A DNA stretch of 64,000 bases from Raillietiella orientalis (Eukaryota): the NCBI GenBank assembly GCA_036172245.1, contig JAYWIR010000032.1, forward strand, positions 434,001-498,000, given 5' to 3'. The translations under genes were made by a program, and so were the position numbers. The notes beneath the pieces are model-generated. The model did not search any database, was not told where the DNA came from, and saw nothing but the letters and a program-made list of their open reading frames with translations. Each line of letters begins with the position of its first letter. Position 1 is the stretch's first letter. Shown one piece after another: positions 22,170 through 63,400 of this stretch.

Positions 22170-22310
22170 AGTCCCTGGAACTTGCTGGAAGGATCCTGGA
22201 GGGTCGACTCCCAATCCTGGCCACTCATCGGGGGCACTCAGCTTAAACCGCTACCAGCGCCGTTTCCGATGATGGGCCAACCAACGTCATCTTGCGGGAG
22301 GAACTCTGAC
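22170..22310 (+). repeat. Dispersed repeat family Y, copy 1 (L1-like ORF1 remnant)
   Basis: CTGGAAGGATCCTGGAGGGTCGACTCCCAATCCTGGCCACTCATCGGGGGCA is shared with 24100-24190(-) and 32140-32260(+). Confidence 0.65.
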
Positions 22311-23599
22311 CCACAGCGGATCTCCATCTCACGGCGTCGATTCCTTTCGAGTATTCGAACCCGCGATCCCCGGTGACCCTCTCAGAGACCGCAACCACGT
22401 GGCCTCCGACGCGAGCAACGGCAGCGGCGGCGTTCGGGCACGTGCGCGGGGAATCTGGACGTGAGCAGCGTCGCCAGGCAACGCGGCCCCCTGCGACGGG
22501 AGAGAGACTCGCAGAAGCCGAGAAGGCACCGGGGTCTCCAGGAGCTGGCGAGCGCGGTTGCCTTCCGGGAGACATTAATTTTTCTTTCGCCGGCTCCTGG
22601 CTACCACGAAGAAGGGCGATCCATCTCCGGAGCTTGACAAAACCAAGATTGTTTTCTCACATGGTTTCCCTGCAGATTTGTGCGATTCTCCTGCTGGAAG
22701 TGCGGATCCTTCGTCCCGATGTGCTCCGAAAGCATTCTTGGCCAATTATCCGAGCCAGTGGAGTACGTCAGCATCGATTTTCCGATCCACAGGAAGGTTT
22801 CTTCCGAAGACAAAGCAGTCCGCGGATGTCCGCGATGGAGAAATATCGGCTGCTACTGCTGCTGCGTGGAAACCGAAGATAAAGTGCTCCGGGACTCGGT
22901 TCGGTGCGTCCGCGAATGCCGGCGCGAACCTGCCGGTCTCGAGGAGCGTCTTGCGCGCCGCCCGTTCCGGAACCGGCCGCTAGATGTCAGGACGCGTGAG
23001 GACCGCACTCCAAGCGAACCGGGGAGAACCCTAGAAGGCCGTGCCGGCGAGCTCTGGAGGCTGATTTGAGACATCAAGAGCCACCCACTTGCCCGATGAA
23101 GGGCTGTCGCGGGATCGCGACGCATAGGGAGAATCCCCGAAACGTCACATGGAGGGGAGCGAGGGTTTCCTGGCAAAGGCGGGAGTGGTGAGCCACGGGA
23201 GAACGGGGTGAGTCCCCTGGTGGAGGATGGGACAGGGAGGATCGGTGAAGGCGTGGAAAAGAGACCAAACCTCCTGAGGAAAAAACGAAAACCACGAAGC
23301 AGACGTTCACTTTTTTTTTTTCTTCTCTGGCTGGTGCCATCAGTCCCTGCGAGCAGCTTCAAACACGTCCCTGGCCTACGAAAAAAGGATCGAGTTGGAA
23401 ACGGTTGAAAAGCAAACCTTTCGGCGAAACAAGGAATCCTGATGCAGCAGCAGCAGCAGCAGAGCTCGGAGGAACCCGAATGCAATGAACATGGAGTAAG
23501 CTGAGTCCACTAGCAGTGGACGTGAAAATATTTTACCAACGTCTTCGAGGGGGGGGGGGAGTTCCAACAAACTTCTGCTGAATCCCGCTGCTGCCATAG

Positions 23600-24500
23600 T
23601 AACTCCTCCTCGCATCTCACCAGCTCCTTCCCATTGAAACTCCAGCTTAGGTGTTGGCACCCTGCAGTGGCCCGCGGCCAAAAATTTCAGCTGCTACAGA
23701 TTCTCCAGCATCCACGTCCCCACGAACCAAGAACAAGAACAGGTCGAGGTTCCTCCTCACCTGCCCACAGTGCCGGAAGAGACTCGGCTGATCCGTCCCC
23801 CGCGGGCAGCATCCATCTTGAGAGACCCGCAAACGTCCGAGCAGCAGGTTCCCGTTTCCTGTTTCCGTTTCAGTCCCATTTCGAGACGAGGGATAGCAGC
23901 ACCTGTCAACCCAGACCTGTGGACCACCTCCTTTCAATACCGCCCTCTATCGGCCTCTATTAGAGGGAGATCTCTTGTTCCGTCTTCTCCGTTTTGCTCC
24001 CCGATTTCTTCTTCCCCCCTTTTTTTTTTTAGTCCACCGAGTACTGAAGAACTGGGTTCGGAAAGGAGGGTGCGTCGTAGGCTTCGATTTCCCCCCCGCG
24101 AGATGGCGCTGGTTGGCACTGGTGGGAAGCGGATGCCCCCGAGGAGTGACCAGGATTGGAAGTTGATCCTCCAGGATCCTTCCAGAGATCAAGGAATCCC
24201 TTAGGGGTTCCCCTCCGTTTGTGAAAGTGGGGCCGTGCATTTTATCTACCGTGGAGGTGGTAGGTGGACACCCCTCCCGAATGCGAAGAAGCGCGCTGCT
24301 CCCTTTAGGGAGCGACCCTTCAGGGAAAATCGGGAAAAGTCCCTTCGGGGTTCTCTTCGGAGGAGGAAGCAAGAAGCGGTTCCCTTGCTGCGGAGAGAAT
24401 GAGAAAGCAATTCCCTCCAGGGTTCCCCTCGGATGCGGGAGAGAAACGGACTCTTCCCTCCAGGGCTTCCTAGATTCATAGGGCGGGCCCTACGGGGTCA
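23600..24500 (-). mobile_element. Dispersed repeat family Y, copy 2 (probable L1-like 5' region/ORF1/APE remnant)
   Basis: The reverse complement of 24330-24495 matches 31588-31900 (GGGCCCGCCCTATGAATC..GAAGAGAACCCCGAAGGGAC). GRILEDQLPILVTPRGHP resembles the L1 ORF1 pre-zinc-knuckle region. Confidence 0.6.
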
Positions 24501-25025
24501 CCACCTAGCTCGAAGAGTTCCACACACCCTTGGGGTGGCGTAGACAGAGTCAAAGAGCTTCGTAAACCCCCAGGCTAAGGGTTCTTTAACACTCAGTGAA
24601 CCGTAGAAAAGGAAAAGCCTCAAGAAACAGGAAGGGCAGCCAGCATCATTTCAGTTCGGGGATCTGATCCCGATTTACACGCAAAACTATTCTTCTCCCT
24701 CACCGCTCCCAGATAGTTTCCAGAGCCTGCCGTGATGGCGCGACGAGTGAAACCGGAACGATAGAGGATGTGGAAGGTACGAATGCCACGAGAAACCCCT
24801 CCACGTTTACTCAGCACACCGCCGCGTGGAGCTGTCGGATGCGCCCCCGACGAGAGCCGTCGGACCTGCAGCCTCCGCTCCAAGAAGCGGAAATGCGGCC
24901 GGCTGGTCGTGGCTTTGGGGGAAACCCGCGTGCCCGGGGCTGAGGTTCTGTTTCTAGGGAGACTTTACTCGGGACGCAGCTGGCAGATCCCCAGGAGAAA
25001 AGCACGGGTGTGCTCTCCATTATCA

Positions 25026-27750: not shown

Positions 27751-29899
27751 AGAGGATGACATATGCCTTCAGGAGCGTGCGAGCATGAAGGGCCTTACCG
27801 TGATCCTCGACCGCAAGTGGACCTCGCAGTCCACGGCTTCAGTCCTCGTCCTGTCTTAGAGGATGGTCGCGCGGTCGCCAGCGCCGTCCATGCAGACAGC
27901 CTGGCAAACTGCGACTGAGGCTGAGGCTGAGGCTGAGGAGCGATGACGTCATCCTGCAGGTGAATGACCAGGACATCAGCAGGGTGAGGAAAAAACTCCT
28001 CTATCTTGCCACTCCAGCTCTTCCCGGAAGCGAGGGTAGGATACAAGGACAGCGGCAGTCTTCGAGCAGGAGGAGAGAAAAAAAAAAAAAGTTGGTGCCT
28101 TATAAGCTGGGACGTTTCCTTGGCAATGCACGAGCGTCGTTCCGAGGAAAGGAACTGGTGGGCCATCGAAGAAGGGATCGAAAGCCCAGTGTTTATCGGA
28201 AGATGAAAAGGAAACGGAGGAGTCGCTCGGTTTCCCTACATAAGAAGGAAGCACTACGGCGCTTGAACTCTTCGTCCCATACTGGGGATTCTCACAGGTG
28301 CAACCCAGCCGGTTCGAAAGTCTTCACAGAAGTCATGACTCACGCTGCACACCGTGCAGCAAGCGTTTTTGTTTTTTTCTTTTTTTTTGTGTTACCAGAC
28401 AGACTTCTGGCAGCACAAGTGTTAGTGAGACGGATGAGCTCAGCACACAACCTGCAGTTTCGTTTCGTGTCTGATGGTGGCTATGCGGAAGCTGTATAAA
28501 GGAAGGTAGAAGGGGGATTCTTCGCTGGGGCGCAGACATCACACACTCACCAAAGCTACCTTGGGTCCTTCGCATCAGCGAAAGAGAGCGCACGCACTCG
28601 GACGTCTCCACGTAGGTCGAGCTTCCAAGGGGTGCAGGGTCTTAAGTTGCTGGTCACTGGTCAGACGCGGTGAGCACACAGGAAAACTTTCGAGACGAGG
28701 GAGACCATAGAGAAAGATGAGGGGTCGGTTTTCCTAAAGATTGGTTGGACTTGACACGCGGAAACCATGGAGATAGAGACTGCGTTGAAAGTCGCAGGGA
28801 TAAATGAACCAATTTTGTCTTGCCTGTTCGTTCCTAATTTCGCTACTGAGGGCGTCTCTTGTTGCGACGCATCAAATGAACCCAAAACCATAACCATCTG
28901 GTTATGGTTTTAGGTTCCAAAGCTCCCATGTTTATTCCACCTCTTGAATGCATTGATCGCCTCCCCATTAACTCGTATACCAATCCCTGAAGAGAAAAAC
29001 AAGCCAGACGATACATATCCATGAATCACTATCAATAACACACACCCTATTAACGCCAATTTCTCCTCCTACTAATCCTCCACCTACGATTACCCTTATA
29101 TGACAAATGGAAGAACAAGCTATTATTACCTAATACTCTACTTGCGTAAGGCACATTAAACCACGTTAAACCCCTTATTACACAGCCCGCAATCCTTATT
29201 CCTACCAAATAAGTCCCTATAATTCCACACCTATATTTCCTAAACGATCCATGACCTCCCGACTTTCACAAAACACTCACGAGAACCGTTGGGCCGTAAA
29301 AAAAAAAAAAAAAAAATCCCACATGAGCCTTAGGAAGTTACAAATGGACGCCATACGCTGGGAATTCCACAAAGAAAATACTCCAACTTTTCCCCTTTCA
29401 TTTGCCCCACATCTCCTTGCAAAGTTAACCACGCCGACCAAAAAGGGAAAAAAAGCGAAAATCTGAAAAGAACAGTGCACAGCCTTCACAAACCCTGAAA
29501 TTTTGACGGAATACCTTGGTTATTTTCTAAGGTGGGTAAATATTAATAATAAACAAATTAAGCAAGTAAGTATAAGAGTTAAGAAAGCAAAACAAGTATT
29601 TATTCTCAAATTTTAATTGCGTGAAATTTTCGTAGTTTTTCACGGAACACTCGTCGACTTTCCGCGGGACGGTTTGGGGAACACTGCCATGGGGTTCAAA
29701 AAATAACAGTGCAGCCATCGACAACGAGCAGCATCTCACCCCATCAACCACTCCATCCCTTCCCGAACATCTCCCTGCATTCAACCACCCGGCGTGAGTG
29801 CATACAAGTAGTGCACAACGGCACACCATCCCTCGTCTTCTCTCTACACCCCACCAGCATTGGTTCTATTCCCTCGGGTTCTCCTGAGGAAAGCGCGCT

Positions 29900-30960
29900 T
29901 TCCGACCGGGAAAAAAGGCGTCGCGCGCCAGCGATTGAGAGTGCTGAAATGGCGCCCAGGACGTCGGAGAGCCTTTCGAAAAGCAGGCGTAAAACCCTGC
30001 CACGCCGGTGCTGCACTGAACTGGGAACAGAGGAGGAGGTCAGAAAACTCCGCAGGAGTTCTCCATCCAGAATTCACTTTTTTGTTTCTTCGGGATGTGA
30101 TCCACGCGATGTGACCCATAAAAAGGAGACTCCTCGCGTATCACCGGGATTCCAAAATGTCCCTTCCTCTTGCTGCATGGTGTGGACTCTCCAGTGGACA
30201 AGAGCAACCAGAAGAGGATGCCTGGTCACCTTCCGGAGAAAGCCGAAGAAGAGGTAGCCATCGAGGAAGACCATTTCCGAACCGCCGACTGTACTCTCTG
30301 AGTAACTGGGAAGGGCGGCTGGAGACTGGACTTTCTTCATGAAGGTGTTCGGCCTCGACCTCAACCCGTACGCGCGCTGATTCCAGTCTTAATCTCCCAC
30401 TCCAGAGTCCTCTCTCGTCTTTCTGAATGAATAAATCGCCAGTCCTTCGGGCTTGAAAAATCGGGCCGCGAAAAGCTGCGAGCATTCCCAGCTCAGAAGA
30501 GGAGGAGGACGGTGCTTGTAGAGCAGGTGGTCGAGTACATTGGACTCCCGTTCTGGGTGACCAGCCGGAATGCTCGCTGTGGCACCACGCGAATCCCTGT
30601 GGCACGCTCCAACACGTGCGGCACCCTCCGCTGACGTACGAGGGATCGGGAAACTTTCGTTGTGAACTTTTACGTTTCCATGTCATTGAAAAGAAAATAC
30701 CGCATATGGGGGGGAGCCACCCGAACAATCGGCGGCACGTTGCCATGCAACGAAACGAAATCATGAAACCAAAAATCCATCCCTACCAGTTTCCCATCCT
30801 CACGTGACACCCATCCAGGCTGGCACACTGGACTACTGGTTTGGAAGTGGACGCGAGGATTGGAGAGATCGTCTCCGTCCACAAAGTGGAAAGACAACTC
30901 CCCCCCCCTTTCCCGAGGGAGTGCGGAGCATGGATCTCGCGTTGCATTCGCTCTTCGGTC
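29900..30960 (+). mobile_element. Degenerate L1-like ORF1/APE endonuclease remnant
   Basis: SGLKNRAAK, FVVNFYV, HMGG and TLDYWF follow the APE motif order. Confidence 0.4.
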
Positions 30961-30977
30961 CTCCCATAATGGGGAGT

Positions 30978-31099
30978 GGTGGGCCGATCCCGGAGGTACT
31001 GCGATACCGGATCAACTCGCGACAGGAGAGGAGCAAGTTCCAAGCAAAATAGGTTGATATACTGGCCTCCAGATAGGGGGCGTATCAGATAAGAACAGA
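30978..31099 (-). pseudogene. U2: U2 snRNA pseudogene, 3' portion (5'-truncated, internal deletions)
   Basis: Minus strand reads TCTGTTCTTATCTGATACGCCCCCTATCTGGAGGCCAGTATATC..ATTTTG..CTTGCTCCTCTCCTGTCGCGAGTTGATCCGGTATCGCAGTACCTCCGGGATCGGCCCACC. This matches metazoan U2 from just after the branch-point-pairing GTAGTA to the 3' stem-loop IV. The stem-IIa loop and part of the Sm/stem-III region are deleted. Confidence 0.9.
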
Positions 31100-31375
31100 T
31101 TTATTTCAATTAATTGCACAAGCATCACAAGAGATGAAATGGAGGACTCTGCCGTATCTCCATATCTGTCATCTCTGGCATCATCCTTTGATTTCTTGTA
31201 GGTGGGGTGCTCTCATCATTTTGTTCGTTTGTTTCATCGTACTTCTTTATGGCGTCGTCTGGAGGGCGGCCGAGACGGTGCGTCCAATAGATATCCCTGC
31301 TATATGGTTTTTTAAAAGGCCAGTAGCGACCCCACGAGGAGATCGTTACTATTGGCCTAGGATCATGGAAAATCC
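31100..31375 (-). mobile_element. Utopia-like non-LTR retrotransposon 3' tail inserted in U2
   Basis: Encodes YSRDIYWTHRLG (31268-31303), like the Utopia C-terminal motif SRDIYxEHxxG, and ends in AATAAA directly joined to U2 TCTGTTCTT. Confidence 0.75.
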
Positions 31376-31584
31376 TTGGGTTCTTCTTCTTCTTCTGTCT
31401 TCGCTGTTTGTTTGTTTGTTTGTTTCGGGTTTTGTGTTTTTTGGTTTTCTAAAGTGCCTCAAGAGCCGGTCGCGTGCCTCGCGGCTCACGTGGCTCTTTT
31501 AAACACACTGTTTTGTTTCCACACCTCTCCTCTGCGACAACGCCGCAGGGGGGCGTGTAATTGTTCAGGATTGGGGGCAGCCCG

Positions 31585-32290
31585 GGATGGGGCCCGCCCT
31601 ATGAATCCAGGAACGGCTCGGAGTCCGTTCCTCTCGCGCTTGGGGAGGGATCCCCCCATAGGGGGGGGATCGCACCTATCACCCTGGTTGTCTTCGAAGG
31701 GGAACCCCGAAGGGAATCTTCTCCCTCATTCTCTCCGGAGGGACACCTTCTGGGAGGGGGTGGTCCTCTCCATTTGATCTTCTACGAAGGGAACCCTGAA
31801 AAGATCCGCTAGCAGGAATTTCTTCTCCAGAGGGAACCCCGCAAGGGAACTGCTCCTGTTCATTCCTCTGAAGAGAACCCCGAAGGGACGCTTCCGAAAC
31901 TCAGAAGGGGCGGCGCGCTGCAGCTTCTCGCAGGGGAATCGCTCTCGCTTGCTTCCTTGCACTCTCGAAGAGGCGACGACTCGGAGGGTTCCTCCCGCAA
32001 CAGGGGGGGGTCCGCTCCTTTAAACAACTGGAGAGGTACGTGTGAAGGCTCCTGCTCCATCTTGAAACCGGAGGGATCCCCCACGGTGTGAGGGGTCCGC
32101 TCTCCGTTGTACGCCCGAAGGGGGAACTCCCCACTCCTTGATTCCTGGAAGGACCCGAAGATCGACTCCCATTGTTCCGACCTTCATGGGAGGCCTCCGG
32201 CTTAAACGATCACCGGTGCCACTCCCGAATGTCTCGGCCAACCAGCGCCATTGCAAGAGAAACTCGGAACCCAACGACGTAGTGACGTCA
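31585..32290 (+). mobile_element. Dispersed repeat family Y, copy 3, with internal GAAGGGAACCCCGAAGGG repeats
   Basis: Homology to 23960-24495(-); unit repeated at about 31696, 31786, 31830 and 31870. Confidence 0.65.
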
Positions 32291-32749
32291 GTTTCTGCCG
32301 GAGTATTCGAACCCGCGACCCATGGTACCACACGCGGAAGCCTTAACCACAAAGCGTCCCATGCGGGCTGCTGCCCTGCTATATTGCATGCAGGAAGCCC
32401 CAATCAAGAGCCTCATCTTCTCCATATGCAATCTCGGGTCACTGATCTCGCGGAGAAGTGCATCGTTCCGTGGGTCCCAAGTTCATTAAGGAGCCGACAA
32501 TGATAGCTCCAACTTCAGACGGAAGTCCCGTTTCCTGGAGCTGCAAGTCTGTTTCTCAATACTTCCCTTCTTTTTCAGCCCTAGAGAAACTGGAGTCTTC
32601 GTCCGTGTTCTCAAAGGAACATGCAACATCAAGAATGCAAATCGTGTTTGCTTTTTTGCAGAACCAGATCTGGTTTCAGACTGAAGGTGCTGCCAGGAAC
32701 GGTCTTATTTGCCGATACTACCTGCCAAGGTAGTATCGGCAAACAAGAC

Positions 32750-33010
32750 GTGGGCAGGAATGTAAGGTGGGTGATCGAAAAGTTAACCATTTGAACTTCC
32801 GAATTGTCTGGAATGTGCGGACAGCATGCGTTGCCAAGGCGCAGGTCGTCGTGAAGGAGAAGGGCCATTCCCGATCTCAGCATTCCACGTCGTCGGTTTT
32901 GAATGGCACGCCGCAGTTTCGAAAGCGTTTCACAGTAGACTGGAGAAGTGATGGTTGTTTCAGGCTCCATAAAGTTCACCAAAAGCACGCACCCTCTTGG
33001 TTCCACACGC
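32750..33010 (-). mobile_element. Mariner transposase fragment (DD34D core)
   Basis: GCVLLVNFMEPETTITSPVYCETLSKLRRAIQNRRRGMLRSG..LLHDD, then frameshifted FKW..DHPPY. Confidence 0.9.
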
Positions 33011-33029
33011 TGCTGTCCGCACGTTCCAG

Positions 33030-33367
33030 GCAATTCAGAAATCCAAATGGGAACCTTTTGATAATCCACCTCACAGTCCAGTGACTACCACGTCTCCCTG
33101 CACCTCCAGAAGTGTCTCGACGACTCGAGGGGGAAAGTGAGGAGTGGAAAACTGCAGTGCTGCTGAACTTCCAAGCGGCGGAATTTCATGCAGACGGTTT
33201 CAAAAAAGCTCCATCCACGGTATCCAAAGTGTTTGGAAAAAAGTGGTGACCACGTACTAAAATGACATGGGGATGTACATGATCGGAACCGCCAACACAT
33301 TTTTGTTTCTGTTTATTTGCTCTTTCTTTCTATCCGATCCTGCCTTATTTTTGAAATGCTCCTCGTA
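33030..33367 (+). mobile_element. Mariner transposase C-terminus plus right TIR and TA
   Basis: KWEPFDNPPHSP..SDYH..LHLQK, FHADGFKKLHPRYPKCLEKSGDHVLK*, ending ..TTGAAATGCTCCTCG-TA (TACGAGG-type mariner terminus). Confidence 0.85.
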
Positions 33368-36300
33368 TATAACACACTCCTTCCTACAAGGTAGCTACAA
33401 GTAATGCACGATGCGTAACACACGTGAGCGTTACATTCTGTACGCCGTACGGACGAAACCCACTGGAAAAACACGGTCGTGTCGAAAGGGGCATCCGGTA
33501 AAGGGCGAAAAGCACCGAAATCTTCCGATTCGAAACAGCCATAAATATTTATGAGGGAGTCGCGGCTGCGAAACCTGAAGCAGACACGTGAAGATGCAGC
33601 GAGGATCGATCCACCGGCACTCATGGATACGCCGCCGATCCAGCCTTCACGTCTGTGCACGGTGATGTGGAGGAAACGGGGGATTCCTTTGATTGGATTT
33701 GTGCTCCCTGCGAAGGAAGGGGCCTTCCGCGGGATCCTCCCATCGGACGAGGAAAGCACGGAGATGGATTCCCGTGAATGATGGCGGCAATTTTCCTCCC
33801 GTGAAACTTCTTCTCCCTGCAAATTACCAGACCAGAGATTAATGAGTCTTAATGGAATTCTTGAAGCTAGAATTCCCTCCCTTCCTTCGATGATCATTTT
33901 CTTTCTTCCACTTCATCTCCGCGATGAGCCATCTTTGCACTTCCAGATCTCCCCGAAGAAGATATGAAATCCATTGAAATCACCGTGACGCGCGCCAGTG
34001 TGTTCTCTCCGTAACGTTCGACGCGCTCTTCCTTTTTTTTTTTTTTTCTATTAAAGATGCAGATTACGTTCTCTCCATTAAGGTCCATTCCTCTCCTAAT
34101 GGAGGTGCCTTCTGAACAGCTCTTTTTCTCTGGCTTTGGTTCGCGACGAACGGAGGACTTCCTCTCGCAGAGACACGCCTCAGGAACACGACGCACCTTC
34201 GCTGCTTTCTGAAAACAACCGAGAAAACTCCAGCAAGAATCTTCCTTTCTCTCTCTCTTTGTTCATTCCGCTGCCGAAATGAAAACGGGGACTTCCGCAT
34301 GGAGCGATTCCTGCTGTCCTTCCCGGTGAGCCCACCGTCCAAATGAAATCTTCGTTCGGATCGCGTACTCAGCCACGTAATCGCTAGGGAAACCACCTCC
34401 AAGGGAAACCGTTTCCACATGTAGAAAAAATAAGGAGGGACGCGCCTGCTTTCTCCGGCTCTCCTGAAACCCACTCCTCCGGGGTCGTTCCCTACGTACA
34501 AAGAAAGTTGGAGTATCTGCGCGAAATCTGGAAATGTCTTCCCAGCCGCCCCCTCAACTTCACGCTTTCCTCTAGACGGAAGAGTTGAATCACAGTGGTG
34601 AACACTGTCCTCCCTTTCTGAAAAAAGAGGCAGGGAAAGGGAGGAGGGAGTGGAAAAATGTGTCATCTCTTTTTGCTTCCTTTTTGCTTTAGTGTATGAA
34701 CCCAGTCGTGCATGTTGGCACGTGCAATTGCTCAATCCGCGCTCCCGTCGCAACCCGTTGAAAATTGGTCCATTGAATTCATTCCTGAGTAGATGGTAGA
34801 CGCTTCATCTGGATAACGTTTTCACTTGGCACCGTACGGAAGAATGATTTAATCTGGATGTTCCTGGACACTGTGCGACACTGCACCTTGTGATGACGTG
34901 TGTCCTCAGACCGAAATAACAGCTCAGCTACGAAATCAGAACCACCTCAGCAGCACAGCCATGCGGCTGAATAGGATACTAATGGCAGGCTCATAAAGAT
35001 GGATACATGCAGGAAGCGGAAGTGATCCAACTGGGTCTCGTTAATGCAGAGCCTTTGGGTTTTTTTTTCTGGGGGGGACCTTCAGATTTCCATTGCTTTG
35101 GTGAGTAATTATGCACGTCTTCTCCGGCTGCGACGACCGGCGCAATGCATGTTAGCGTTACAAATGCAAAAGCCTCTATTCCAATGGGAAAATCCAAAAC
35201 ACGTGCAGTGCACTGAATCATTTTCTAGGCGTCGCCAGCTAAACTTAAGCAACAGAAGTGTTGGGCTTGCAGCTTCTTTTCTTGTTTTCTTCATACTGTG
35301 GAAAGGGAACAGCTAGAAGAATTGATTTCTGTCACTGCCACTCAACGCTAATTTCAGTCATCACTTCAATCTGGATCATTCCTACGGTTTCTTCTATACA
35401 AAAGCCACAAATTACACGTGTACATAAAAGCCGAAACGCAATGAAACCAGAATAAGGACGAAATGTTTCTGTAGGTACACTTTAATGTCCTATCTGCATA
35501 GGTCTGACGCGTTTCCTCGTATAAACTTCTGCGATGACAATCCTTCCGTCTCGTTTTTGAAATTGTTCAGTTCCTCCCTACTCCTATTTAGAGACTACCA
35601 AACGCAAGCATGATGACAACAGTGTAAAAATGTCTCATTCATTGAATTTGCCACTCATTTAGGTGCCTTACTGTCATCGATCTATACGACAAGTCGTCTC
35701 TTCACACGACTTGATTTATAGATCAAACTACACACTTGCATTATTTTTTTCATTCAGGGTTTGGAAGAAGAAAAAAAAGCCTCAGTTTCCTTTTCGAAAT
35801 CATCTTAACCTTCCGGCCAGCTCATTCATTGCTCATTCAATCGCTTTCCTCACACACTTTCTTCTTGCTAAGAAGTGCACACTGAAATTAGGAAGACAAT
35901 AATTTAGTTCTCATAAACACACATTTCTCCATGAGACTTTCCACTCGTGTTTTTCTTTTTCCTTTCCCCGATCTTCACAATCGTGCTTTTGGAAATTGCC
36001 TCAATCGGAAGATTCTTAAAGTTTAGTTTTCAACTGTGCTTTTAATATATTCAGCATTGGAAACCAGTAAAAAAAAAAAAAAACCTTCAACTCCTGCGCT
36101 CTGAGCCTCTTTAAATGAAACTCTCAAAAATGGACCGTATCTTATTCGACTGAGCCATCAGTAATAATATGAATTTACGACTGCTGAATCGGAAGCACCT
36201 CGATGACTATGAAGCATAACTAATGAATAGATAAATGAAGACATATGCATGTATCTAGTACTTGAAATTCCGGGAAAGCTATTAAAGGAATGAACAATTA

Positions 36301-37031
36301 GGCAGACTCGTGTTCCCTATTTTCGTGAAAAGTAGAGCAGAATCATAAAACCGTGGGAGATTCCACGGATATCTAAGATTATTCAAATTCACATCGCTCT
36401 CGATAATAAATGAGCAGACGTTGTAGAACAAATGTGCACGCTGAATCGGGCTGTGTTCTAGGCAAAGATCTTGATAAAAAGACAGATGGATCTGCAGAGG
36501 CGGTGTGTGGGGCACAGCTGGAAGAACTTCTGAGAACTTGAGGACTTCTGTACAAATGCCATATATCGTAAAGTCAACCTCACACTGAAAAATGCAAAAG
36601 CATTGCATAGCACACTAAACAGTCCGGATGAAAAAATAAAACGTTCTAACCAGAGTTCGAGAATAAAGGATTCGGTAATTAGACCTCCCACTATAACAGA
36701 TGAAGGAGGTGATTTTCCTCACATTTTCATTGGAAAACCAGGCATCGATTTTCTGTAGGCGAATTTTCTGTAGAAGAAAACCTAGATTTTCATTTCTTTA
36801 CCATTTCAAAGAATAAAGAACAGTAAGACAAACGAGATAAAGAAAGACAATTGGATGGAACAATGTCGTAACAGGAAACCAAGCCATTTATAAAATGAAA
36901 ACTAAGAAAATTGCTTGATAATCAGCAAATGTTTTTAAAAGTCCAGACAGTTTTCCTTCAAGATTGGTACCCCTCATCCTGAAAGACGATTTAATCGATC
37001 ATTCGGCATTATAGTTGATTTCAAGGCATGA

Positions 37032-37071
37032 AAATTTAAGCACATTGAGATTGCTCAATGTGCTTAAATTT
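37032..37071. repeat. Perfect 18-bp palindrome with 4-nt loop upstream of Atg2
   Basis: AAATTTAAGCACATTGAG-ATTG-CTCAATGTGCTTAAATTT. Confidence 0.9.
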
Positions 37072-37859
37072 ATAATGAGCTCAAACTGACATGTGTAACT
37101 GCACTGATGTTGAAATTTGTTGATACATCTTTTCATAAATCTCTGATGATTGCAGTCCAAATCGCATAATTTATTAAAGCTTATTTTTGCTAATCATCTA
37201 AAGCTAATTTCTCCCTCCTTTCAGTTGTTTCAATTCATTTTTTGAATCCCTTATACTGAAAGCAGTGCCACAAAAACCATGTAACTCAAAAAAGTTTTCC
37301 CATTAGGCATAAATTACTATCTTCTGTATCAATCATAGCTTATATTCATCACACTGCGTTGCTTTCGTTGGAAAATAAATACTTTTCCTTTATCTCGCTA
37401 GCTAAACGTGCTTTTCTTTTCTTTAATTTTGTTTAACACCTTTCAGCAATACATTTTCTGTGTGCATTTGGTATTTCCGCAATATTGTGAAAACGTAAAC
37501 ACAGAGGGAAGAATGGTTATTAAAAGCTGAATTACGCTTAAATTAAGGGAAGTAGGGATGAAAAGGTGAGTAACTGTGCAGTGCATGATGAAAATTTGTT
37601 CCTAAACTTGAACTTCCAGATTAGCCGACTTGTATTCAATTATCCAGAATAAATGAATTAATGCCATTTCTTACTTCTAAATGTTTCTATCATTTCAGTC
37701 TTTGGGTAATACGTACGTAATAATCTACCTTTAAATTCGCATGCTTTGTGTTTTTTTGCGTTTTAAGTAATGATAGTAATAAGTATGTGTGATTTTTATT
37801 GCTGTGTATCATTCGGAAGTTACCATAAAAAAGTATTCTCATTGTAATGTTGCTCCTAG

Positions 37860-46800: not shown

Positions 46801-49800
46801 ATAGGTAACCGTTTTTGTATTTTGTACCTGTGCATTTAGCATTTACACATCAGAATCTCGTTTGATCTGTTACTGTGGAAGCCTGGATGTGTATTTTGTG
46901 GCTCCAAACGTGTGCTTGCATCACTTTCTGTGTACGAGAGTTTTCGACCATGCCATTGTGAATCTACTTCAGGTGAACTTGATTATATTTGAATTTTCTA
47001 ATAAAGCATGTGCGAATTTTATTGTGTTCAACTGAACTTATAGTGCATGAAAGAATCATTTTTTTCATTATTTTTATTATTACGACCATTATCTTCTGAG
47101 CAGTGTTTTTGTACATTTAATCCGCTAAATATACTTCAATATGCAAAACCTGTAAGCAGTTTGTACTTTAATGATTAGCATCTTCATCTGATGAGCTAAG
47201 TGATAGTGAGTTGTACTGTTCCATACATTGTGATAAGAAAAAAATGTCAAAACCAAGCAACAAATGCATTTTGACTGATGGGCTTGCTTTTGGGATAACT
47301 TTTAATCAAGCTTCGGTTCTCATCAGCACACCATCTAAGGTCAGTTTTTTTTTCTTCTTGAATTCAGGTGAAACCTTAGTTAGGATGTAGATGGCAAATT
47401 GTTGGAGAAAACTTATGGGTGTCTTTGGCTTCGATTATGCGATGGATGTTTGTTCTCCTTGACAGGCAATCAGCAGTTACACAGAACTGCTTTGTCATGT
47501 TGCTGGGCCAACAAAGGTTGCATTAGTTTTAAACGTAATGTAAGATTCTTTGGGTGTGGGAAACTTAGCCTTGACTATTACAGCATCATCAAGTGTGAAA
47601 GCAGATTTGTTTACGATTGAATCCAATATGGATGCCGTCTTGAAAGATTTTTATCTTTTGATAAATCTTTCGGAAGAAGGCCTTTCATCATATTTTTATG
47701 GCTCTGAAAAAAATGGTTTTCATTCAAAGGATGCTCTAAACTTTTCCCTGAAATGCTCAATAGATGATGAAACCGATCTCAAGGTAAGGGAAATGATTAA
47801 TTATAGTAGGGTATTCTCTCGTTTCAAGATTTATCAAGTCGCCGTAGGTATTGAGAATGTTACCCTGTTTCATCGTATGTATGAGAGTAATGAAAACTGG
47901 CTGGCCCATTTGATGGAGTTTTTCGACATTAAAGAATACCCTATCCCCGGTTATGAGTCTCCAGCCGTCATTACTGAACTTCATTTGCATTTTTGGAACT
48001 GTGCAATAGATTACAGGTACAGGCAGAGTTCCATATGCATCATGCTATGTGCATCTCCAGACCACTCTATCTCCCATATCGAAGCATTGTGAGTGCGCGA
48101 AACTTTAGTTTCTCGAGCAATTTAACTGCCCAAGCCAACCAATCTGTATTAAGATTCATCATTGAAGATGCTGCTTTGTTTCTGTCCACCAGATGCAAAG
48201 ATGTTATGATTGATCTCAAACGTGATTTCATCTGTATACTTGATTTAGATTTTTTGGATATCATTTTAAGAACTTGTCAGAACCATAAATTGGGAAGGCC
48301 AAAAACCGAACTTGTTGCTACCAACAACATTGTCCATTTAAGAACATGTGTCGATTCGTTCATTGCCTTGTCAGAGCTTATCAACTATTACGCCAATTAT
48401 GGAGACTTGAACAATCCACAGAAAGAATGCGAAACGCATTCCGAGAGCGAAAAGGAGGGAAACATAAATCAGATGCATGACATGATCGAAGATGCGATGC
48501 AAGAAGCCACCAATAAAAAATCTGGTACAATAGCCATATATAAGGTGTAGGTTATCATTTACGCAATCATAGAAAAGGTGGATAAAACAAGGGTGGTGAC
48601 CGAAAATCAAACCATATTTTACTTTCCTGACGAATCAGCCAGTGTGGATGATGCTCTCCTGGGCACAAATGCAAGTACATTGGAAGAAAGCTTTGAAAAT
48701 TCTGAAGAAGAGTTCTGCGTTCTTGAAGATGACCCTGGAACGGGGTTCACGGTAACTGTCGCGCCCCAATTTGTGGTATGGTTCTTGAGCCCCTTGTCTG
48801 TTGTATAGCCCAAGTCTGGTGAGCCAGAACTAAGAATATTGAACCCTTTCACGGTTATAGAAAATTTCGTCCCTATCCCCAAAACCAAGAGAGATTATCT
48901 CCAAGCTCCAAAGCATTTTCCAGTTCCCGTCATGAAATTACACTTGCGAGAGCTGACTCTTATGTGGCAGTTATACGGTGGCTCTGATTTCGACACATTA
49001 TCCAAAAGGTATTACAATAAGGTATTCTAATAAGCTGTATACATGCTGCATATACACGCTTTTGGGAAAGATGGCAATCCTTAATGAAATTCTAGTTCTC
49101 CAAAGCAACAGATGAACGAGGAAGTGCTGCCTCCAGCTTCCAGAGCCGGACCCACAGTGGGTTGCAAGAAAATTGAAAACGAATCTTTTCAAGTGAAAGT
49201 CTGGAAGGATTTTAGTTGCCCTCACGTGAGTTCTTGTATTTGTTTGATAAATAGTACGACGTACTGGTTTGCAGACACGTTCAGCGAATTTCAGAAGCTC
49301 AAAGAAATGGATTGAAGATGGTGGGGCACACAGGAGACTAGATATTTGCATGGAATTAGTGCTTTCTAAAGTAAGAAGAGTGACCGTTTCTTGTTTCTTG
49401 AACAAAATGACCCTTATTTGGTTGATCCGTTGTTGCTTAGATGATAGTTGTTTTTACCATTGTTTTGTTTCTGCGATTTCTGGGCGCACTTAGCAAAGTG
49501 GATACCTTCACTTAAGGTTCTCCTTTATGTGAGCAGTGCCTTCGTACGATGCACGACATGCCTGCATGCGCTCGAATTAGAGGTTAATCCGAGGAATTTT
49601 TTTTATCGGGATTGCTTCCACAGATCGTCTTGACGTTTCGTTAATCGCTGGAATTTCTTGGGAGGCCTTCTCCGTTTAGGCCAACTGATCAAATGAAACA
49701 CCCGGTGGGTCCTCGTGGGTTGGTGTCTCGTGTTGGATGTCCTTTCCATGACTCGCCTTCCTTGAAAAGTATTCTTGCCCTGGTCAGCATATGGAATTTT

Positions 49801-50632
49801 CTTCTCGGGTTTTCTTAGGATCCAACTCTTTTCAAGAATACTTGGCTGATAAATTCGTTTCGTGAGTATTTCTGGAATAGTCCTAATGTAATCCGTAAAG
49901 CAAGACATTTAACATCTTTGTGCTTTGGTAAAGTGTGAGATTTCCGTTATTTAAGATGAAATGAGATGCCTGTGAAATTTCGCCAACCATAATAATGCAT
50001 CTGTCGCAAACGCAGCGAAAGAAGAAAATCAAGTAAAAGGAAAGGAAAAAAACGCGTAACTTGAAAGGTCTTCGGGCCCGGTCATTTCTCCGTGTGAAAG
50101 TAGGTAATGAAATTCTTCCGACGGGAAAAATGTAAGTCGACGGCAAGTGCTCGTTGGGCCCGTGGGTCGCAGCCTATTTTCTGTGATTCGTTGTGCCGTC
50201 TGTGTTGGGGAAATAAGAATGCACGCCGCGGCCACTTTTTCCTTAAAGTGGGAGCCCGTAGAGTAAGCTCCTCTCCCTCTGAAACCAATGTTCGCGTCAC
50301 GCACTCTTCCCAAGAGTCGAAGGGCAAAGATCTGAGGAAGACGCGTTTGCGTTCATCGTTTCGAGCGTTCGTTAATCAGGGGAACCGGACAAAACAAGTC
50401 CTTCAAAGATTCGTCTCTTCTGTGCTGAGGATGCTGCCGTGTGCTGACTTCCTGAGCAAAGCGCTTTGTCGAGGGCATTTCAAAAGGAAAGACCCTGGGC
50501 AAAGCGGTTTGCAAACGTTGCTGACGCGGCCGTAGTGGTGATAACCGATGTTACTGATTCTTTTCTCCGGAAAATATTTCTCGAACGCAAACTGAAAGAC
50601 GATGTTTCTCCTGCCCCTTCGTTTTGCGTAGG

Positions 50633-50667
<35 letters not shown>

Positions 50668-53083
50668 TCAGTCAAGCACGAACATCGACTCGTTGAAAGA
50701 GTTATTTGATAAATGAACTTTGAGGCTGCTTCCACGAGAACATTTTTCTTTTTGTGAACCCAACAGTGTTAAGTGATCGTTGTCCATTGGACGCCAACTC
50801 GTAAGAAACCGAAGAGATTGTGCTCTTGGCGAAGCAATTTAAATAATCCATAACTGTGGATCAGTTCTTAATTGCTTCTTGCTCAGCTTGGGCTTGGACC
50901 GATCTATCATTAAATTGATGAAATTTCCAGATTAGCGATTTCATAACGATCGCCCTGATCGCTTGCATTTTTTTTTTTACTCGGTGACTCCGGGGCGTTT
51001 GACGTAAAAGATGCATCCTTTATCAATGAATCTTCGGTGTTTCTGTAGTGGCGGTACGGTGGCATTACTTCGGGATGCACTGAGTAGGTCCGCTCAGGGA
51101 AATTAGGGGGAAGGGGAATAAACGGGCAAGAAATAAATGTTAAGCAGAAAACATGTGTACTAATTGATTGCTCGTGCGAAAGTTTGCCTTGGGGGAACTG
51201 CAATTCTCCCCCTGATTAACGGCGAAAGCGTGCAGCATTCCCTACACCGATTTTTGCAAGTGGCCTCGTTGATTCGCGTGCTGATGAGGTCCTCAGGGGG
51301 TGTTTGCGGGATTGCTCGTTTGCACGCATTCCTTTTCCGTTGGAAATGAGAGTTTCTTCTTCTTCTTCCCCTTTTTCACGTTCTTTAGAATGAAGGCTGA
51401 ACGAATTTTCTTGTAGAATCCTTGCATTCCGTATTATTTCCAGATTCAGTTTCTTTACGAGATGTATCCAGATGTTACGTTTCAAGCGTCGAGGCAAGTG
51501 CTCAGCATCCGCGACGTGGAAATCAGGGACAAATTAGCGTGTTCGAGGATCAAAAAATTTCTGTACCCTTTTTCTTCAAAGGAACACCCTCGGCAGTCGC
51601 ATTCCCAAATGGTGAATTGACCGTCCCGAATGCGAGTTTAATTTGCGTTGGCAGGTGTTTGTGAAAGCCCTCCAGGTGCGCCCGGATCCGAACTTGCCAA
51701 CCTTGGAATGCATGCTGAAGATATCCTTGCTCCCCCTCCGACTGAACATCGAACAGGACGCGCTGATTTTTCTGTACAACTTCTTTTCCGAGTTCAACCA
51801 GCGTCTCGGGGGAGGTGTGCTGGCATTCCCCGTGTCCGTCGACGAGTCCCCTGTCGTTCTGTAGATATCTCACTGGAAAATCGCCTCTCTGAGCCGGTGC
51901 TGAAGATCGGAGAGCAAGGGGTTCCTCAAGGCGAGACAAAGGAACAGGCTTCCCTTTCGACTTGCGACAGCGAAAAGAGCGTGGACAAGGGCGAGCGACT
52001 GTTTCACCGGCCGCTGTATTTCCGGTAAGGCGCTGCGTGCAAAAACGGAAAAAATGAAGTCGAAATAATAGGTCCGTGTGCTTTTCTCCCGATTTGTACA
52101 TCCGTCTGGATTATCACGGAAAATATATAGAACTGGCCCATGGGCCGCTGGCCGGAATTATCATCGGGCTGATGCAGCTGAACTGCTGCGAACTGCGCCT
52201 GAAGAAAATCGTTCACCGGCACGGGTGAGTAGAGCGGGACGGCGACCCTCCAGAAAGGCTTGCTTCAGGCTCCTTGGGTTCAACAACGTGCTGGAATTCC
52301 TCGTTCGGGAATGGCTGGCGGACATTAAGAAAAACCAGCTTTCTGGTCTCTTAGGCAGCGTGGGGCCGATGAGTATTGTCCTCCAGCTCCGTGAGTCCGA
52401 CACCCCGAAGGGAAGTCCATCTTCATGTCATTTCAGTGGAAGGCATCCGAGATCTGTTTTGGATGCCCATCCAGCAGTATCAAAAAGACGGCACCATCAT
52501 CGGGGGCATCAAAAGAGGTGCACATTCATTTTCTTCGTCGACAGCTGTCGCGGCGCTGGAACTGACGAGTCGATTAATCAAGACGATCCAGGTTTGTGCG
52601 ACATCTGTCTTCAGATGAAAGGAGTGAAAGTGGCTGCTTTTGTTCAGCACGCCGCGGAGTTGACGTACGACGTCCTGAGCCCAGGGCCGAGCATCCGACG
52701 GAAGGCGTACCCGACGGGGAAGCGGAAGAAAAAAATGATGCAGCCGGTCGACTTGAGGGAGGGCGTGACGAACGCAGTCGCTGTCGTAAAGGAGGTAACC
52801 TCCCCCCTCCCCCTTCCGCGCGCCCCGTGTGGCAGGCAGCGACTATGCCGTTCAGGGCCTGCACGAGACGGCGCACACGCTGGTTCTGGTTGCCCACCAG
52901 GAACATGAGCAGAAGGGCGTGACCGGTGCCGTCGGCGGCGTTCTCAGGCAGATACCGTCCAGCGTGGTTCAGCCCATCATACTGATTTCGGAAGCCACTT
53001 CCAACGTGATAGGAGGACTGCGGAATCAGTTGGCCCCGGACGTCTGCAGAGAGCAGCAGCAGAAATGGAAAGATGACGTGTAG
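37860..53083 (+). CDS. Atg2: Autophagy-related protein 2 (lipid-transfer protein, VPS13/Chorein_N family); multi-exon gene span
   Basis: Exon 1 (37860-38027) reads MSWFSIWGENFKKRICRYLLDRYLG..ISLDEFSIDLFNG, matching the ATG2 Chorein_N start. Exons 38553-38721, 38765-38920 (MTSSLQLAEDCL..PFEGLEFLAQFIDS), 38965-39067 and 39114-39240 have GT..AG introns. Middle exons contain ITELHLHFWNCAIDYR and LRELTLMWQLYGGSDF. C-terminal exons read LKISLLPLRLNIEQDAL, IRLDYHGK, GIRDLFWMPIQQY, QPVDLREGV. Last exon 52856-53083 (GGVLRQIP..EATSNVIGGLRNQ..QKWKDDV*). Internal exons at 39.3-47 kb are not all resolved. Confidence 0.96.
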
Positions 53084-56000: not shown

Positions 56001-57189
56001 ACCCATCACAATCTATTAATTCTTTACGTCCATTCCCATTAATTTTCGCCAGATTTACCTCATCTAAACAAGAACACGTTCTCTTGAAGTCTTCGTTCAA
56101 CCTCACTACGGCTTCCTTTCTATGGAGCTTTCAAGGAAATAGCGTGAAGTACGCTCCGTAAAAATTGAGAGTTCCCCTGCGTGGGAGGCTGCGCATGAGA
56201 GGAAGAACGGTTGCGAGGACCGTCGTCCAAGGCTCCCAAAGCACCTAAGAGGCGCAAAACAAATGGAAGAGTGCGTTCCAATGCTTTCAGAGCAAAACTC
56301 GCGAATGATTTGAGATTCATAAAGTTCGATGTGATAAGCAGTTCTCCCGTTTCATGCGTAGAAAGACAGAACAATTTCATCAACGGCAGTTGCTCGAATC
56401 TTCTCCGATGCAAAGGCTACTTCAAATCAGCAAAATTACGAACCTCAGTTCTTTGGATATTTACGAATTCTGGATCCATTTTTCAGCATTTTTGTCATCT
56501 CTAAAATCTAATTTTACTTCCAGTGATTGTTTCGAATAAACTTGCTTATATCTTGAAATCTGCTTAATGTTCTCATTTGGATGCTGCAAAATATCAGTTT
56601 TCAGAATGAGAAGTACACAAAAGAGTGGACACTGCGTAATTATGGGCACTTTTCCCAGGATCAAAAACCACCACTCAAAAACTTCACGGAAAGCAACAGT
56701 TCCCCATATCAGGCCTCCAGCAGTCCACCGGAGGGTTTGCTACTGCCACGAAGATCTGCGCCGAAGACGTCACCAACCGAGCTCGCGCTCAGACCTTTCT
56801 GCGTGCACCCTTACCACTCTCCAGCTACTCGTAAGACCCTAGAGAACCTGCCGTTCTCCGACGGTGTGATGCCGGAAGGGAAAAATGACTCTTCCCTGGC
56901 GGTTGGGTGCAGGCTTGACGCTTAATGAGAATTTCATGGTTGCCACCTTCCAGCTATCCATTCTACTGGATCCGATGGGTGTATCCCATCGGCCGCCATC
57001 ACCCAGAGTTCGATTCATCCTGTAACACTCTTACCAAAACTGGCCTACTGGTCGCTCATGGTTTCGACAGCGTCCAAGCAAGCCAGACTTATCATCCATT
57101 TAAAGTGGGAGAATAGACTGAGGTCATTTCGATCCAAAGCTTCTAATCATTCACTTGACCGGATGAGACTCCATTTTTCTTTCATTTCA

Positions 57190-57800
57190 ACAGACCAGGA
57201 CACCGAGACTAGCACGGACATTCAGCATCGAACCTAAGGTCATTTGCTGTACAAGGGACACGACCTTAGGTTCGCAGATGGCGAGGTCATCCACGTGGAC
57301 CCGATTGAACCTCCTGCCTGTATGACAGCTTGCACTAGGGAGGTGGCTGACCGAACGTGAGCCAAGCGCGGAACTGTTCCTTCAGAGCATCTCCAGCCAC
57401 GAAACGACGATCGCTGTGTGTCGTGGTGGTATCCGGTGGAGCAACTCAAGAGGGATATCCTGCAACAGTGGGAACCGCTACATACCAGGGAATGGCGCCA
57501 GCTTGGAATCCCCATCGGTGCACCAGGGCGGAGGGACAATCATCCTAGGCGTGGTACTCCCGCACCAGCACTCCTCCAAAGCGCTGGAAGACGCAAAACG
57601 TGTGAAGCAGACACGGAGGACCGACCGTCCACTGGCCCCGAAAGAAGTCCCGCCTGTAGTGAAAGAGATCGTTGCAGGATCCTCGGGGTGGGAGATGAAT
57701 TGATGACGCTGAAGTTCCGGAAAAAAAAAACGAAATCACAAAGCAGAAGATAGTCCGCATAAGCGTCCATCGTTCCAGAGAGATGTGCTGGAACGACAAG
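57190..57800 (+). mobile_element. Utopia-like 3' fragment, copy B
   Basis: DQ..GHDLRFAD..RLNLLPV, TIILGVVLP, KALEDAKRVK, EIVAGSSGW, SREMCW (RLE tail). Aligns to 14110-14500. Confidence 0.75.
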
Positions 57801-60492: not shown

Positions 60493-63400
60493 ATGCGTTC
60501 CTGGTTTGCATGTGTCCTGCACAGAAATCTGCTGTCTTTCAGAGCGGCCTGTAAAACCCCTGCATTTGGTTTCACACATTCACGCCCGTCTGTGCATGGT
60601 ATCCAAAAATTACAGTTCATAAATACGTATCTTCCGTACAAGATGAGCGAAAGTAAAAGCACCGGGGACAAAAAGGATTTTCAGAGGCTTCCACCGAGCA
60701 TCAAGCCTGTTCATTACGAAATCACACTGAAACCGAATTTTCAAACATTCAGATTTGAAGGAACAGAGGATGTGATTGTAAACGTAGTAAGTACCTTTGG
60801 CATTTCCTGTATATCCAAATGTACCACTTTTCAAATTGTGAATAAGTAAGCACGCAAAAATATGAAATTGGCAAAATGAGAAAAGTTATTTGTCAACCAA
60901 ATTAATCGGTCCTTCCTGACCAGTAGATTTTAATAAGAATCGACTAAAGCATGCAATTGCTTCATCAGCATTTGAAACTCTGTATTAAAGTCGAAACCAA
61001 TGATTTTGTGTAAGCATTATGAGCAATTTCCAAATTGGTCATTAATTAGAGTATACAAAAGCTGGAAATTTCTCATCAAAAGAGACATTGCATGTAGTGT
61101 TTTAATGAAAATAGCTATAATATACTTTATTACATGAATAATTTTTCCACCTGGTTAAATTTATGTTTGTTTGTGCAAAGGTTCAGAAAGATTGTCGACA
61201 AGTGGTGCTAAACTCTGCTGATTTAGATATTCTAAGAGCATCTTTTACTGATAAAAGCGGTACACCTCAACTATCGAGAAGCATTGAATTCGATTCTAAA
61301 GATGAAAAAGCAATATTCATTTTTGACAATCCTTTTGAAGTTGGAGAAGCTCATTTTGAAGTTGCATTTTGTGGAGAGCTCAATGATCAGATGAAAGGCT
61401 TCTACAAAAGCAAATATTCAAGGTAGATTAAGTTAATTAGTTTTGACAGGGAATTTTGAGAACCATCTTTCCGAAAGTGCAGTGCTAACAAAGATGAGCA
61501 TTACATGGCTGTCACACAATTTGAAGCCAGTGATGCTCGACGAGCTTTTCCTTGCTGGGATGAACCAGCACTCAAAGCCACTTTCAATATCACTCTTGTG
61601 GTGCCAAAAGATTACATAGCTTTATCTAATATGGTGAATGCTGCTACTAGTTAATACTGCTTTAATAGTATCTTTAGCCTGGCATAAAGGAGGAAGAAGA
61701 TATTACTGATCCGGATCTTAAGATTGTTCGGTTTGCCAAAACTCCAATCATGTCCACTTATTTAGTGGCTGTGGTTGTGGGAAAACTTGATTTTGTTGAA
61801 ACTTACTCTAAGGATGGAGTATTGGTTAGAGTGTACATGCCTATTGGGAAAAAGGAACAGGGCCTGTTTGCCTTGGATGTAGCCAGCAAAGTACTGCCAT
61901 ACTATAAGGACTATTTCCAAATTGCCTACCCATTGCCAAAATTAGATTTGGTCGCCATTCCAGACTTTGCCTGTGGTCAGTTATCTCAAATGCTGTGGAT
62001 ACTCACTGATTGTTGTAGGAGCCATGGAAAACTGGGGTTTGGTGACATATCGAGAGACATGTCTCCTTGTGGATCCTAAAAATACATCCGCATGCCAGAA
62101 GCAATGGGTAGCACTGGTGGTTGGTCATGAAATAGCCCATCAGTGGTTTGGCAATCTAGTCACCATGGATTGGTGGACTGATTTATGGTTAAATGAAGGC
62201 TATGCTACTTTCGTGGAGTTCCTATGTGTGGATTACTTGTTCCCAGAGTACCACATCTGGACCCAGTTTGTGGCCCAGGTGTATTGTCGAGCTCTGGAGC
62301 TAGACAGCCTCCATAGCAGCCATCCTATTGAAGTGCCAGTAGGCCATCCCTCTGAAATTGATGAGATCTTTGATGATATCTCATATGATAAGGGTGCCAG
62401 TATCATTCGCATGCTGCATCAGTACTTGGGTGTTGAGGTAAAAGCATTGATGTTCAACCCAATAAGATGATTTACATTAATTTTAGAATTTTCGCTTGGG
62501 AATGCATACATATCTTAAGCGCCATCAGTATGGAAATACATGTACCGAGGATTTGTGGACTGCTTTGCAGGATATCAGCAAGAAACCTGTGGGGCCAGTG
62601 ATGTCAACTTGGACTAGGCAAAAAGGCTTCCCATTAATCCACGTGGCTTGCAGTTCTGAGGGAACAAAGAGAAAATTGGTTCTCAGCCAGGAAAAGTTTT
62701 GTGCTGATGGCACAAAAGACAAGGAGGGCACTCAGTGGATTGTGCCTATTAGTATCATGGCATCATGCTCTGGTGTTGTAGAATGCACCTCTCATCTCAT
62801 GGAGCAGGCTACTCTGGAAATCACACTGGATGAAGTCGATGCAGACTCCTGGATTAAGCTTAACCCTCAGGCTGTGGGTTTTTTTCGAGTTCAGTATCCT
62901 GGAGAAGAGCTGCAAAAGCTACTGGCTGCTGCCAAGGATCACAAATTGCATCCACTGGATCGTCTTAATCTGGCTGATGATCTCTTTTCTTTGGTGCCTG
63001 CTGGACATGCAAACACAACTGATGCTTTAGAGCTACTGCTTGCTTATGCTAATGAAGACAGCTACCCTGTGTGGTGTTGTTTATGTGCTATGCTGGAGAG
63101 ACTCTCCTTACTTTTTGATTATTCACCTTTTCGAAAAGCCTTCCACCAGCTGGGCTGCCGTGTGCTGCTGAACATAGCCAACCGTTTGACGTGGGATACC
63201 CATCCTGATGATAGTATGTGGATTTAGCTATAGATTGTAATTCTTGTTGCAGCCCATCAGGACAAGCTGCTGCGCAGTCTTGTATTACGGCGATTGGGAC
63301 AATTTGGGCACAAACCAACAGTAGAAGAAGCTCAGAGGCGCTTTGTTAAGCACTGCAGCAAGGAACAGATATTGCCAGCTGATCTACGTGGACCTATCTA

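Follow-up and report, generated by a model that had tools for sequence, protein, structure and literature searches.

A probable fossil 3' end of a Utopia-type retrotransposon joined to a truncated U2 snRNA sequence in Raillietiella orientalis

Introduction

How did a U2 snRNA sequence that lacks its 5' part come to lie directly behind a piece of DNA ending in AATAAA in the genome of the arthropod Raillietiella orientalis? The original prediction, made from the letters of a 64-kb stretch of this genome (the window, by which we mean the whole stretch analysed), described the coding tail of a Utopia-like retrotransposon fused to U2 on the minus strand and took the locus for a site-specific insertion into a U2 gene that afterwards decayed by deletion. 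Utopia elements are non-LTR retrotransposons of the NeSL clade with a restriction-like endonuclease (RLE). They are recorded from 21 arthropod species (Table 1, PMC4640811), and the U2 sequence downstream of them begins at nucleotide 39, TCTGTTCT (PMC4640811). What is said here about published Utopia and Keno families is limited to the accessible portions of PMC4640811, including its S1 Fig, and of PMC4494074.

Our analysis indicates that the piece in front of U2 is probably the fossil 3' end of a U2-targeting non-LTR element, with a Utopia-type retrotransposon as its most likely source, and that the 3' four-fifths of a U2 sequence follow it directly. Genomic fossils of this kind are known, and the locus adds one more dead, 5'-truncated copy, from an arthropod genome, to a familiar class of site-specific retrotransposons.

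Results and discussion

A decayed U2 fragment without its head

We searched positions 30600-31500 of the window (901 nt) with the Rfam covariance model of U2 (RF00004) and obtained a match at 30974-31135 on the minus strand, with 41.7 bits (E 8.2e-7 in an E-value scan). It was the sole U2 match in an E-value scan of the whole window, where its E-value was 5.8e-5. A scan restricted to 30600-31100 (cmscan) left the score unchanged at 41.7 bits (E 4.5e-7), with the match covering model positions 38-192 and carrying the 5'-cut flag. The gathering score of RF00004 is 46 bits, and the fragment is missing from the default Rfam listing because its score falls short of this value; the default scan of the whole window reported a 28S rRNA fragment alone, without U2.

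The alignment obtained with the 901-nt region was good from AUCUGUUCUUAUC on and bad ahead of it. The 35 nt at 31101-31135 added 0 bits to the score, and therefore nucleotides 1-37 of U2 (the head) are absent. The U2 sequence proper thus occupies 30974-31100 on the minus strand. Apart from the 5' truncation, the covariance-model alignment revealed two internal deletions: of the 12 model positions in the loop of stem-loop IIa only 1 remained, and ~17 positions were gone around model positions 104-120. Both gaps recurred when the fragment was aligned to the U2 of a metagenome contig (L001, described below). A member of the U2 family would be expected to reach at least the gathering score and to keep an intact 5' branch-point-binding region; the present sequence scored 41.7 against 46 bits and had lost positions 1-37.

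No match to a 20-mer from the U2 head was found in the 64-kb window with up to 3 mismatches allowed, and the window held neither a second U2 nor a U2 array. We conclude that 30974-31100 is dead U2-derived sequence rather than a gene. The U2 part of the original prediction was thereby largely borne out: a covariance-model match was obtained, though below the gathering score, the 5' part is missing and two stretches have been deleted from what is left. The position needed correction, since the predicted feature (30978-31375) stopped at 30978 and the U2 sequence ends at 30974.

The junction at U2 nucleotide 39 and the terminal motif

On the minus strand, ...TTAATTGAAATAAA gives way to TCTGTTCTTATC... 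between 31100 and 31099. Read over a longer distance, ...TGTGCAATTAATTGAAATAAA stands directly before TCTGTTCTTATCTGATACGCCCCC... The U2 fragment opens at A/TCTGTTCTT, immediately past ...GAAATAAA, so that the junction (31099-31100, minus strand) has the form ...AATAA(A) followed by TCTGTTCTT. The A at 31100 is ambiguous by 1 nt: it can be counted as A38 of U2 or as the final base of the element. Apart from this single base, an AATAAA-type 3' end is joined to U2 at nucleotide 39. The break between an AATAAA-ending tail and U2, as predicted, was thus confirmed in the minus-strand sequence.

The same arrangement is found at published Utopia 3' junctions. In S1 Fig of PMC4640811 (Kojima and Jurka 2015), successive Utopia junctions read ...|TCTGTTCT, and ends of the form AATAAA|TCTGTTCTT are given there for Utopia-1_SP and Utopia-1_LV of sea urchin and for Utopia-2_APi of aphid. 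The junction in the window is therefore identical with the published junction at U2 nucleotide 39, and the original prediction was right to place the start of the fragment at the U2 site known from Utopia and Keno elements. The accessible text of PMC4640811 also describes arthropod Utopia families as being without target-site duplication, and reports that the 5' part of U2 is lost at insertions and in arrays of Phytophthora Utopia; the U2 head is likewise absent upstream of the piece studied here. In its U2 nucleotide 39 junction, its AATAAA-type end and its arthropod host, the locus thus resembles Utopia.

The likeness extends into the end of the tail. By word search against S1 Fig and inspection by eye, we found that the last 15 nt of the tail, ATTAATTGAAATAAA (31100-31114, minus strand), are identical with the end of the consensus of the ant element Utopia-1_CFl (...AACATTAATTGAAATAAAA). 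Copies of the bee element Utopia-1_MRo nearly match it, with ACATTAATTGAAAAATAAA. The 11-mer TTAATTGAAAT occurred once in the 77,786 characters of S1 Fig, at the terminus of Utopia-1_CFl, and ATTAATTG occurred eight times, in each case as part of the terminal motif (six times in Utopia-1_CFl and twice in Utopia-1_MRo). Other arthropod Utopia ends in S1 Fig are variants of CATT...AATAAA. Within the window, the 15-mer was present once without mismatch, while two AT-rich sites elsewhere resembled it with 2 mismatches. We put the probability of a 15-nt match arising by chance at ~0.002-0.02, a rough estimate by judgement rather than a value computed by a tool.

The similarity to catalogued Utopia 3' ends spans these 15 nt only: none of five words (8- to 10-mers) from the window sequence further upstream occurred in the accessible S1 Fig. 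The identity with Utopia-1_CFl ends at the same point, and the tail in the window lacks the GC-rich hairpin found immediately ahead of the motif in the ant and bee elements. A terminal motif of hymenopteran Utopia, ...ATTAATTGAAATAAA, is also present in another arthropod, which hints that the last ~15 nt may be what the enzyme requires.

The surroundings of the U2 fragment allow a different reading of the junction. A block consisting of the tail and of U2 from nucleotide 39 to its end could have been brought here as a unit, by segmental duplication or by copying back of a read-through transcript, or chance could have placed a truncated U2 pseudogene next to an AT-rich end. The fragment is indeed solitary, having neither head nor array nor a second U2 within 64 kb, and the 36 kb of GC-rich sequence around it contain dispersed repeats and, as the sole protein-domain match, a fragment of a mariner transposase. 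However, no poly(A) was found after the end of the U2 fragment and no target-site duplication around the block of tail and U2. A truncation exactly at nucleotides 38/39 that coincides with both AATAAA and a 15-nt Utopia motif is also improbable by chance. We therefore regard relocation or coincidence as unlikely, and an insertion of Utopia type as the better account of the junction.

The tail in front of U2 is short and non-coding

We delimited the piece attached to U2 from its upstream neighbours. The candidate 3' UTR, 5'-truncated and non-coding, lies at 31101-31380 on the minus strand, and its 5' limit falls between 31380 and ~31529. At 31381-31448 it is bordered by (GAA)n, (CAAA)n and A-rich microsatellites (Tandem Repeats Finder, 31381-31402, 31405-31425 and 31430-31448). 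The outer limit is a dispersed, GC-rich and unrelated repeat at 31530-31895, which BLASTN aligned in inverted orientation to 24333-24549 with 67-84% identity; U2 does not adjoin the copy at 24333-24549. Since the tail is enclosed by these microsatellites and this repeat, the piece attached to U2 is at most about 280-420 nt long. It is present in a single copy in the 64-kb window, and its predicted RNA fold is ordinary (z -0.34).

Two further features of the tail were considered and rejected. A hairpin at 31128-31176 gave only chance-level Rfam rows (E 2-4) when looked for as a known RNA, and the score of an apparent internal duplication was reached by 5 of 300 shuffled sequences, the match being of low complexity.

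According to the original prediction the tail encodes the end of a Utopia protein. The frame concerned runs over 107 codons from stop to stop (31125-31448, minus strand) and contains YSRDIYWTHRLG. Its length is not unusual, as 172 frames in the window reach 100 codons or more, and its first 23 codons are translated microsatellite. We found no Pfam match for this frame, and a comparison with longer proteins likewise gave no match. The 84-aa informative part yielded no match at E<=0.001 in a HMMER search of 1,835,955,588 representatives, a library that takes in arthropod proteins, as seen in a related collection. In the ESM Atlas, recognition of the frame was below that of most real proteins; its best match reached 0.88, and its neighbours, all below 0.9, were bacterial. 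We judge that the frame is no real coding remnant and conclude that the tail is non-coding.

Coding remnants were likewise sought upstream. In every minus-strand frame of 40 codons or more at 31100-37500 (51 in all, covering ~6 kb upstream of the junction), Pfam detected no reverse transcriptase (RT), zinc finger or endonuclease; the sole match was a mariner-type Transposase_1 fragment at 32629-33084. RT was also absent by Pfam from 170 of the 172 window frames of at least 100 codons, the scan comprising all except 29747-30073 (minus strand) and 29812-30111 (plus strand). Utopia elements carry a C-terminal zinc finger and a PD-(D/E)xK restriction-like endonuclease upstream of their 3' UTR, and neither was seen here. 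With no RT among the 51 frames or the 170 of 172, this heavily truncated copy provides no sequence that could be placed in an RT phylogeny. The copy in the window thus differs from Utopia in being without RT, zinc finger and RLE, and in standing alone, outside any visible U2 array. Taken together, the junction, the absent head, the deletions and the shared 15-mer agree with the Utopia-type insertion that had been proposed, whereas the claim that the tail encodes the end of a Utopia protein has to be abandoned.

A comparable insert in a U2 tandem array

We searched collections of contigs for similar junctions. The exact 22-mer junction had no match in the metagenome contigs. A looser pattern, AATAAA followed by U2 from nucleotide 39, was found at one locus in them, L001 (1638 nt). 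On its minus strand L001 consists of a U2 3' end, a spacer of ~50 nt and a non-coding insert of ~300 nt ending in ...GTAATAAA, which is followed by U2 from nucleotide 39 to its end, a spacer of ~900 nt and an intact U2 start. Its U2 pieces scored 62.9, 102.7 and 111.4 bits and have no internal deletions. L001 is a U2 tandem array of a eukaryote, in which the insert-bearing unit is without the U2 head and the ~900 nt spacer. The 19-mer junction was matched six times in the genome_contigs and once in the viral_contigs collection, but none of the seven matches ran on as U2, and we attribute them to chance in bacterial or viral DNA.

At both loci a short non-coding piece (~300 nt in L001) with an AATAAA end directly precedes U2 nucleotide 39, and the two pieces show a weak likeness over their last 100 nt. 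The alignment score over this length was 4, compared with a mean of -24.6 (sd 9.7, maximum 2) for 200 shuffles. In contrast to the solitary copy in the window, the insert of L001 still lies in its array: the neighbouring unit has an intact U2, and ~50 nt of shared spacer are retained. L001 shows an event of this type within an intact array.

This second insert bears on another explanation, in which the piece in the window is a short non-autonomous (SINE-like) element that has a ~15-nt 3' end in common with Utopia and was copied by the Utopia enzyme onto the same position of U2. Such an element would be wholly non-coding and would resemble Utopia at its terminus alone, as is the case here; the insert of L001 is a comparable ~300-nt non-coding sequence at the same U2 position, and its alignment to the last 100 nt of the tail lies slightly above that of shuffles. 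On the other hand, we found no tRNA, 5S or 7SL head (a tRNA scan of 29000-34000 was negative), and the piece occurs once in the window, without a defined 5' end. Truncation of an autonomous element from its 5' side, the usual case for non-LTR elements, would look alike. We consider the SINE-like origin rather improbable.

In its more specific form, this explanation takes the ~280-420 nt piece to come from a short non-autonomous family that borrows ~15 nt of the Utopia 3' end and that the Utopia enzyme directs to U2 nucleotide 39, and to this we assign a slim chance of being correct. If it were true, the short riders would form, for an RLE-type element, a site-specific counterpart of a SINE/LINE-like pair. 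The insert of L001, an unrelated contig, hints that short riders of this kind at U2 may recur. The locus would acquire greater significance only if copies across the genome revealed such a family of non-autonomous riders.

Proposed origin of the locus

We return to the preferred reading, the 5'-truncated 3' end of an autonomous element. The Keno elements of the Tx1 clade (Kojima and Fujiwara 2004, as cited in PMC4640811 and PMC4494074), which have an APE-type endonuclease, are U2-specific and share with Utopia the target position and, as stated in the accessible text of PMC4640811, the identical 3' flanking U2 sequence, could also have left such an end, but the terminal 15-mer agrees with Utopia ends and therefore favours Utopia over Keno, and the range of Keno in the accessible part of PMC4494074 comprises vertebrates, lancelet and cnidarians and not arthropods, so that a Keno/Tx1-type origin is very improbable.

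From these comparisons we infer an enzyme of the Utopia type, an insertion at the present locus and an order of events whose steps are drawn from the published account of the Utopia family. The restriction-like endonuclease of the element would have nicked the bottom strand of U2 between nucleotides 38 and 39. With the nick as primer, the element RNA would then have been reverse-transcribed, beginning at its ...AATAAA end. An early stop of reverse transcription or integration, i.e. 5' truncation, would have left the ~280-420 nt of non-coding 3' tail. The U2 head may have been lost at integration, comparable with the Phytophthora arrays, or afterwards. Finally, the dead U2 piece would have lost its two internal stretches by deletion.

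Surroundings of the locus

The U2 fragment and its tail lie in a block (window positions 1-36000) of 45-58% GC, where Pfam recognized, among frames of 100 codons or more, only the mariner fragment mentioned above. This remnant (Transposase_1, E 1.8e-6; 32629-33084, minus strand) shares the strand of the tail and lies 1.5 kb upstream of it. The block also contains dispersed repeats: besides 31530-31895 with its inverted counterpart at 24333-24549, 32142-32368 resembles 22182-22416. At 36-48 kb the block gives way to AT-rich sequence (33-35% GC).

Further along the window, the 28S rRNA fragment reported by the default Rfam scan occupies 320 nt at 56873-57192 on the minus strand (LSU_rRNA_eukarya positions 967-1379, 51.8 bits). 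It is isolated, outside any rDNA unit, and Pfam detected no domain around it among frames of 100 codons or more. Two host genes were recognized on the plus strand. Exons of an ATG2-like autophagy protein are present at 47978-52905 (ATG2_CAD, E 4.4e-9 and 8.2e-6), and exons of a puromycin-sensitive aminopeptidase at 61678-63224 (Peptidase_M1, E 5.1e-60; ERAP1_C, E 1e-28). Among the matches listed, its namesakes from mites, horseshoe crab, decapods and insects share 75-84% identity with the aminopeptidase exon at 61946-62467.
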